A stretch of 64,000 bases of DNA from a virus, in the IMG/VR virus record IMGVR_UViG_3300027788_000006, positions 23,533 through 87,532 of that record. One strand, written 5' to 3'. The position numbers were made by a program, and so were the translations under genes. Under the pieces are notes generated by a model. The model did no database searches, was not told where the DNA came from, and saw only the letters and a program-made list of their open reading frames with translations. Below are positions 47,162-47,221 of this stretch, one piece after another. The stretch's first letter is position 1; the number at the start of each line of letters is the position of its first letter.

Positions 47162-47221
47162 TTGTGTTTAATGCAGCAATACTGGTCACAAGCCCAGTTG
47201 AGAAATGCAGAGTGAACACAA
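47162..47221 (+). ncRNA. Twister self-cleaving ribozyme, type P1
   Basis: P1 UUGUGUU/AACACAA; cleavage site U^AA; P2 UGCA/UGCA; GC; P4 ACUGG/CCAGU; loop UCAC-AAGC; GA-GUG. Both pseudoknots can form (CAC/GUG and GC/GC). Confidence 0.92.

Follow-up and report, generated by a model that had tools for sequence, protein, structure and literature searches.

Twister ribozymes of solved structure cleave at a U-A step, and the optional hairpin P3, which is present in 78% of annotated twisters, is missing from the crystallised rice ribozyme Osa-1-4 (PMC6154101). Self-cleaving ribozymes of bacteria are known from the vicinity of phage genes, where their roles have been called unresolved (PMC6765202; PMC8782182). 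Phages also encode large, highly structured non-coding RNAs (ncRNAs), of which GOLLD increases in expression during phage lysis and ROOL can equal 16S rRNA in abundance, and both of which form RNA-only cages (bioRxiv 10.1101/2024.12.08.627333). We found no paper in the literature on twisters in crAss-like phages, nor one on twisters fused to large ncRNAs.

The locus described here combines these elements. The window, by which we mean the whole 64-kb stretch of DNA that was analysed, lies within a complete 87.5-kb IMG/VR virus record with a crAss-like layout, in that terminase, portal and major head protein are encoded on the minus strand and DNA polymerase and helicase on the plus strand. The terminase is approximately 42% identical to that of gut crAss-like phages, with further matches including Flavobacterium and Cellulophaga phages, and the DNA is present in marine metagenomes. 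No GenBank phage was matched in a BLASTN search with positions 46000-49000, and the signature of the ncRNA had no copy in 185,579 prokaryote genomes, such that no clue to a host or a prophage was obtained from them.

At 47162-47221 on the plus strand, where the letters transcribed in a first-pass annotation of this DNA agree exactly with the sequence, there is a minimal type-P1 twister that lacks P0, P3 and P5 and has all other elements (Table 1). The helices P1, P2 and P4 come in the canonical order, with L1 and L2 between them and L4 as the closing loop. L4 engages in two pseudoknots, T1, in which C47187-A47188-C47189 pairs with G47212-U47213-G47214 on the 3′ side of L1, and T2, in which G47176-C47177 of L2 pairs with G47192-C47193; both are paired in 26 of 26 copies, with one G-U pair in T2. 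The conserved nucleotides of the class are likewise in place, namely the U-A-A of the cut site, the AAGC of L4, the GA before T1 and the run of A residues before the 3′ strand of P2, and outside P3 all upper-case consensus positions of the Rfam model RF03160 are matched, except for two T1 positions that covary. The MFE fold of the twister strand consists of P1, P2 and P4 (z = -2.2). By homology to the U-A step of the solved twisters (PMC6154101), the cut is predicted to fall between U47169 and A47170.

Table 1. Features of the ncRNA-twister locus and its immediate surroundings (window coordinates)
Feature	Position	Strand	Details
Weak terminator-like hairpin and U-run, AGCAG-N9-CUGCU-UUUAU	46754..46777	+	Ends the upstream small-ORF unit; read directly
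Predicted mature ncRNA, ~392 nt (5′ cleavage product)	46778..47169	+	5′ hairpin 46787-46804, then a large multi-helix domain
Closing helix, 5′ strand GAGUAAG	46808..46814	+	Pairs with 47157-47163; 7 pairs, 3 covarying, 98% paired
Closing helix, 3′ strand CUUACUU	47157..47163	+	Abuts twister P1 without spacer; U47162-U47163 common to both
P1, 5′ strand UUGUGUU	47162..47168	+	Pairs with A47215-A47221; conserved helix is the inner five pairs, 47164-47168
L1, U-A-A	47169..47171	+	UAA invariant in 26/26; aligned to UAA of RF03160; predicted scissile bond U47169/A47170
P2, 5′ strand UGCA; T2, 5′ strand GC	47172-47175; 47176-47177	+	P2 100% paired, with three pair combinations
P4 hairpin	47182..47197	+	CUGG 47182-47185, L4 47186-47193, CCAG 47194-47197
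L4, UCACAAGC	47186-47193	+	Contains T1 CAC 47187-47189 and T2 GC 47192-47193
3′ part of the twister	47206..47221	+	P2 3′ strand UGCA 47206-47209, GA 47210-47211, T1 3′ strand GUG 47212-47214, P1 3′ strand AACACAA 47215-47221
First downstream ORF, 99 aa	47249..47548	+	27 nt past the ribozyme; no family match; outside the conserved unit

The rice ribozyme Osa-1-4 (PDB 4OJI; RF03160) has the same succession of parts, that is, P1, U-A-A, P2, GC, P4 with the loop UCNCAAGC, an A-rich joiner, P2′, GA, GNG and P1′. It also shares the absence of P0, P3 and P5, the T1/T2 double pseudoknot and the U-A cut site, which in the phage is a predicted one. The two ribozymes differ in the middle pair of T1, which is A-U in the phage and C-G in rice, as well as in the sequences of P1, P2 and P4; moreover, the phage twister is encoded by a DNA phage, is fused to a large ncRNA and scores below the gathering threshold of the family. 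The first-pass annotation had matched the phage sequence element for element to a P1-type twister of the rice kind, and this is borne out by the covariance-model match, by covariation in 26 homologues and by the presence of the same T1 variant in Twister-P5 sequences that pass the Rfam cut-off.

The match to RF03160 (twister-P1, clan CL00120) extends over 47165-47218, covers the model from end to end (positions 1-68) and scores 44.6 bits, with E = 1.3e-6 when the 64-kb window is compared with all 4227 Rfam families and E = 5.7e-9 in a local search. No other Rfam family matches the window with E < 0.1, the full virus record of 87.5 kb likewise has this single match, and 14 control genomes gave no hit at E ≤ 0.01. 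The comparison with this model, which the first-pass annotation had proposed as a check, is thus significant by its E-value, but the score remains below the curated gathering threshold of 67.2 bits, and an Rfam scan of the window at the default gathering thresholds is empty. The gathering score of RF03160 is a curation threshold and not a biological feature; of the 28 viral contigs in which the twister-P1 model found a match, none reaches 67.2 bits, the best one having 51.2. In the alignment to RF03160, 17 model positions belonging to the optional P3 hairpin are deleted and two T1 positions are mismatched, the latter because pseudoknot pairs are beyond what a covariance model can score.

Covariation was evaluated in two sets of sequences, one of ten diverse P1-type copies and one of 26 distinct units fused to the ncRNA, the latter from marine viral and metagenome contigs, of which 56 metagenome contigs were found with a pattern of the upstream RNA. 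Among the ten P1-type copies, 94.9% of the cells are paired, versus 18-40% with slid partners, and double-sided changes occur at 8 pairs; the covariation score reaches 0.317, as against 0.105 after shuffling, and none of 500 shuffles is as high. In the 26 fused units, P2 is always paired, as UGCA/UGCA, AUCA/UGAU or UGUA/UACA, and so are P4, as CUGG/CCAG or ACGG/CCGU, and the inner five base pairs of P1, which include three covarying positions; the two outer P1 pairs are formed in only 21 and 15 of the 26 copies. Compensatory changes are thus found in P2, P4 and inner P1, and the UAA and T1 (CAC/GUG) are without change in all 26 copies, as is T2 apart from the one G-U pair. On these grounds, 47162-47221 is very likely a functional twister.

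The T1 variant can be followed beyond this family. The 15-mer UGGUCACAAGCCCAG, which spans L4 and P4, is found in 104 IMG/VR contigs, and approximately 42 distinct contexts of it are twisters, either of type P1 or of the permuted type P5. All twister-like contexts, which were chosen on the CAC loop only, have the T1 partner GAGUG, as compared to approximately 3 of 32 non-twister contexts. Twister-P5 matches above the Rfam cut-off (39-61 bits versus 37.6) carry the CAC/GUG variant as well, and the consensus of the Twister-P5 family is in lower case at exactly the two T1 positions that vary. The support for T1 pairing is therefore drawn from between families, T1 never varying among the aligned copies of the ncRNA-fused family. 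The differences from rice in P2, P4 and T1, which had been read as compensatory at first sight, have held up in this comparison, with CAC/GUG as a normal family variant of T1.

The type-P5 twisters of uncultured viruses (RF02684), which have the identical L4/P4 15-mer and the GAGUG partner, differ from the phage twister in being circularly permuted, with the opening at P5 and P1 closed by a loop, and in not being fused to a large ncRNA. They are also arrayed, with as many as 7 of them in 11.6 kb, and immediately precede protein genes. Arrays above the Rfam cut-off are present in four unrelated viral contigs, L023 (7 in 11.6 kb), L020 (4), L010 and L098, and many of the ribozymes in them are followed at once by a ribosome-binding site and a start codon. 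As far as can be judged from this arrangement, the arrays look like a ribozyme-based cutting of polycistronic phage transcripts.

What distinguishes the twister of the window is the RNA to which it is joined. It forms the last 60 nt of a conserved block of 444 nt (46778-47221), which starts abruptly at 46778 and whose conservation extends precisely to the 3′ strand of P1 (47221), and both flanks are unalignable among relatives. The part upstream of the twister, 384 nt in length, has approximately 17 covarying helices; a compensatory change is found in 73 of 124 predicted pairs in nine sequences, with the twister helices counted, and the fold of the ncRNA has a z-score of -3.9. Judged from the alignment, 46778-47161 belongs to a large RNA family that is new and covaries strongly. 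This upstream RNA has no Rfam match at E < 0.1 in the window or at E ≤ 10 in a search with 521 nt, and matches to snoRNA and lncRNA models are noise. GOLLD, ROOL, a group I intron and RNase P were considered as its identity and rejected, with no Rfam match beyond noise. Variants of the RNA exist, with a 39-nt inserted hairpin in the relatives L043 and L096 and one hairpin missing in L191.

The large domain of the ncRNA is closed by a helix whose 3′ strand runs directly into P1 of the twister (Table 1). U47162-U47163, which could belong to either, are more likely part of the closing helix, because the outer P1 pairs are formed in only part of the copies. A re-pairing of the 8-nt tail left after cleavage with the 5′ leader (AAAC/GUUU) was also considered, but was abandoned because L005 does not preserve the register.

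At the other end of the block, the hairpin and U-run just upstream of 46778 were overlooked by a terminator scan because the loop has 9 nt, and analogous contexts of a hairpin followed by a T-run lie upstream of many of the homologues. A scan for sigma-70 promoters gave sites that were no more numerous than in shuffled sequences, and a conserved motif upstream of 46778 was not found in 48 distinct contexts. With no conserved promoter being recognisable, the 5′ end of the ncRNA could arise by processing instead. On the minus strand, the hairpin at 46787-46804 together with the GTTTGTTATA that follows it was called terminator-like, the only such site in 46300-47600, and could also stop antisense transcription from the plus-strand module.

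The fusion of the two RNAs is fixed. Of 46 metagenomic copies long enough to be judged, 45 match the twister pattern, and the remaining one, L222, has a twister in which T2 includes a G-U pair; none of the 46 complete copies of the ncRNA ends in another ribozyme or in a terminator, though these were collected with a strict pattern that is biased to close relatives. In all relatives that have it, the block occupies a constant position 1.5-2.7 kb ahead of the DNA polymerase gene. The first-pass annotation had assigned the ribozyme to the early region; its position ahead of the DNA polymerase/helicase module would suggest early expression.

Downstream of the block, the situation is a different one, since the 99-aa ORF has homologues in only some relatives, at varying spacing, and the first ORF of at least 50 aa lies anywhere from approximately +60 to approximately +360 from the twister core and differs in identity among relatives. 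A search for relatives through the 99-aa ORF gave none, and those used here were found by DNA patterns and through the DNA polymerase. A conserved motif, AAGGTTGATGATATACCTTTTTAAAATCATCA, which is followed by an ATG approximately 30 nt later, precedes a gene approximately 0.7 kb past the twister in L015, L047, L053, L059, L080 and L043, where it might serve the phage as a promoter or an operator.

The block does not always evolve in step with the phage that carries it. In L053, the ncRNA has 88% nucleotide identity as compared to approximately 60% amino acid identity of the DNA polymerase, whereas in L191 the polymerase is 76% identical, but the ncRNA only 57%, with the twister at 90%. In the most diverged copies, the twister is conserved at 86-90%, versus 57% for the rest of the block. 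These comparisons suggest that the ncRNA is exchanged between phages as a cassette. L195 (IMGVR_UViG_3300001450_000370), a close relative with a polymerase 74% identical and the same neighbouring genes, has no ncRNA and twister and no ORF-free gap of at least 250 nt, and the block therefore is dispensable, or accessory, in this phage group. Another non-coding segment of the window, block I (45847-46312), was considered as a paralogue and rejected, since it is unrelated and nhmmer finds one copy of the ncRNA per window. Block I itself was found in one fetched relative only, L180, as a 66-nt match with 79% identity.

Some evidence for the RNA itself comes from metatranscriptomes. The stretch is partly present in six marine metatranscriptome runs, and contigs of 4 runs (3 studies) were compared with 45000-48200. 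Over the block, RNA contigs cover 46778-47144 only, with a depth of approximately 25-35 in three runs; contig depth is zero on the flanking ORFs, on 47145-47221 and on the ORF at 47249, with the reservation that contigs cannot prove absence. Exactly at 46778, two contigs begin without loose ends; they come from a single study, from two of its samples, and their starting point is also where strains diverge. The 3′ stops of contigs at 47105-47112 fall in a hairpin that varies among strains and at which assembly graphs break. Neither the true ends nor the strand can be read from assembled contigs, and their cover is weakly consistent with an abundant, discrete RNA without the ribozyme body. Elsewhere in 45000-46777, contig cover is confined to 45439-45471, where two short contigs of run X20 (depth 8-24, 3 mismatches) lie just beyond a candidate minus-strand structured RNA at 45185-45445.

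From the motif, its covariation, the fixed fusion to the ncRNA and the restriction of RNA cover to the predicted 5′ product, all of which are observed, we infer cleavage, the chemistry of the ends, the start of transcription and the purpose of the cut. We consider it fairly probable that the twister is the built-in 3′ end of an ncRNA gene, and that its cut matures an abundant phage ncRNA. Transcription would start at or near A46778 and proceed through approximately 384 nt of folded RNA into the ribozyme, which would then fold P2, P4, T1 (CAC/GUG) and T2 (GC/GC) and cut between U47169 and A47170. The product would be an ncRNA of approximately 392 nt with an 8-nt scar and a 2′,3′-cyclic phosphate, and nearly the whole ribozyme would stay on the downstream fragment, which would have a 5′-OH and carry the small early ORFs. 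The cut would thus set the 3′ end of the ncRNA without a host nuclease or a terminator and uncouple a stable ncRNA from the mRNA. The P1-type geometry would suit such a trimming of 3′ ends, in that almost nothing of the ribozyme is left on the upstream product.

The same cut can be viewed from its other side. In this alternative, the twister mainly serves the downstream mRNA, whose folded leader with a 5′-OH would protect it from 5′-end-dependent decay or tune its translation. Only 27 nt separate the ribozyme from the ATG at 47249, and after the cut the whole ribozyme fold would be on the downstream fragment. There are precedents that point in this direction, since ribozymes ahead of coding regions in RNA viruses have been linked to translation (PMC13725137), a processing of polycistronic transcripts has been suggested for bacterial ribozymes (PMC6765202), and the Twister-P5 arrays in other viral contigs are located directly before genes. 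However, the offset of the downstream ORF (approximately +60 to approximately +360) and its identity are variable while the junction to the ncRNA is fixed to the base, conservation ends exactly at the 3′ strand of P1, and the twister body and the ORF are without RNA contigs, as opposed to a depth of approximately 30 on the upstream RNA. We therefore regard a main function in the mRNA as unlikely.

A role in forming the 3′ end of the ncRNA is favoured over one in the mRNA because the ncRNA junction is fixed, spacing and genes downstream vary, the boundaries of conservation are sharp and the RNA cover corresponds to the 5′ product only. The first-pass annotation had envisaged both outcomes of cleavage. 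A cut that releases the upstream non-coding block gains support from the conservation of the block, the covarying ncRNA, the fixed fusion and the RNA cover, and would be in keeping with the sequence comparisons. The protected downstream mRNA with a 5′-OH is not supported, given that RNA contigs are lacking on the twister body and on the ORF at 47249, and that downstream genes and their spacing vary.

It is also conceivable, though distinctly improbable, that the twister is a structural or regulated domain that does not cleave constitutively, for instance because the closing helix holds it inactive or because the cut is conditional. U47162-U47163 can be paired either in P1 or in the closing helix, which leaves room for competition between the two, and the ribozyme is always continuous with the ncRNA. 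Against this, every nucleotide that the family consensus conserves is intact here and unchanged over the 26 copies, the P1 stem is dispensable for cleavage by twisters (PMC6154101), and the twister body is never found in RNA contigs. Finally, that the motif resembles a twister by chance only, or is a relic that has decayed and lost its activity, as might be thought from a score under the curated Rfam threshold and a fold z-score of only -2.2, is highly implausible and close to refuted by the covariation in homologues, given E = 1.3e-6, compensatory changes in all three helices and invariant catalytic and pseudoknot bases over 26 copies, and a twister that is conserved as much as, or more than, the rest of the block.

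If the twister forms the 3′ end of the ncRNA, the question arises how this RNA relates to the large ncRNAs known from phages. It resembles GOLLD (RF02032) and ROOL in being a large, highly structured phage RNA, but differs from them in that it has no match to them even at E ≤ 10, is shorter (approximately 390 nt), has no neighbouring tRNA and carries a ribozyme at its end. A positional link is provided by the sister phage L200 (IMGVR_UViG_3300017727_000310), whose polymerase is 61% identical and which has a GOLLD RNA at 2973-3342 (226 bits versus a cut-off of 150). This GOLLD lies in an ORF-free segment (2431-3372) ahead of the polymerase and of the homologue of a 198-aa protein encoded in the window, in the slot that the ncRNA and twister occupy there, and it has no ribozyme match at E ≤ 0.01. 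The shared slot hints that the new RNA may correspond to GOLLD in function.

As for the ribozyme at the end of the RNA, a comparable arrangement was reportedly described by Kienbeck et al. in 2024, in which HDV-like 'theta' ribozymes adjoin the tRNA genes of gut phages. This is likewise a small self-cleaving ribozyme directly after a phage ncRNA, whose cut makes the 3′ end of that RNA; yet the ribozyme is of another class, its partner a tRNA rather than an ornate RNA of 390 nt, and the phages those of the gut rather than of marine waters.

In this context, the ribozyme itself belongs to a known class, and it is the fusion to a new covarying phage RNA that is of interest. The role of twisters in bacteria and phages is still open more than a decade after their discovery, and the fixed partner, the geometry and the expression seen here point to the formation of ncRNA 3′ ends. 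More tentatively, and with somewhat greater doubt than belief on our part, the twister may be the dedicated 3′-end module of an undescribed family of ornate RNAs of approximately 390 nt in marine crAss-like phages. These RNAs would be abundant in the ocean metatranscriptome, exchanged as a cassette and placed in the GOLLD slot as a counterpart of GOLLD and ROOL, and their maturation and stability, by way of a 2′,3′-cyclic-phosphate end, would depend on the ribozyme rather than on host enzymes. If true, this would be the first defined biological role for the twister class. The analysis also adds a new large RNA family to globally distributed marine crAss-like phages, linked by its position to GOLLD.
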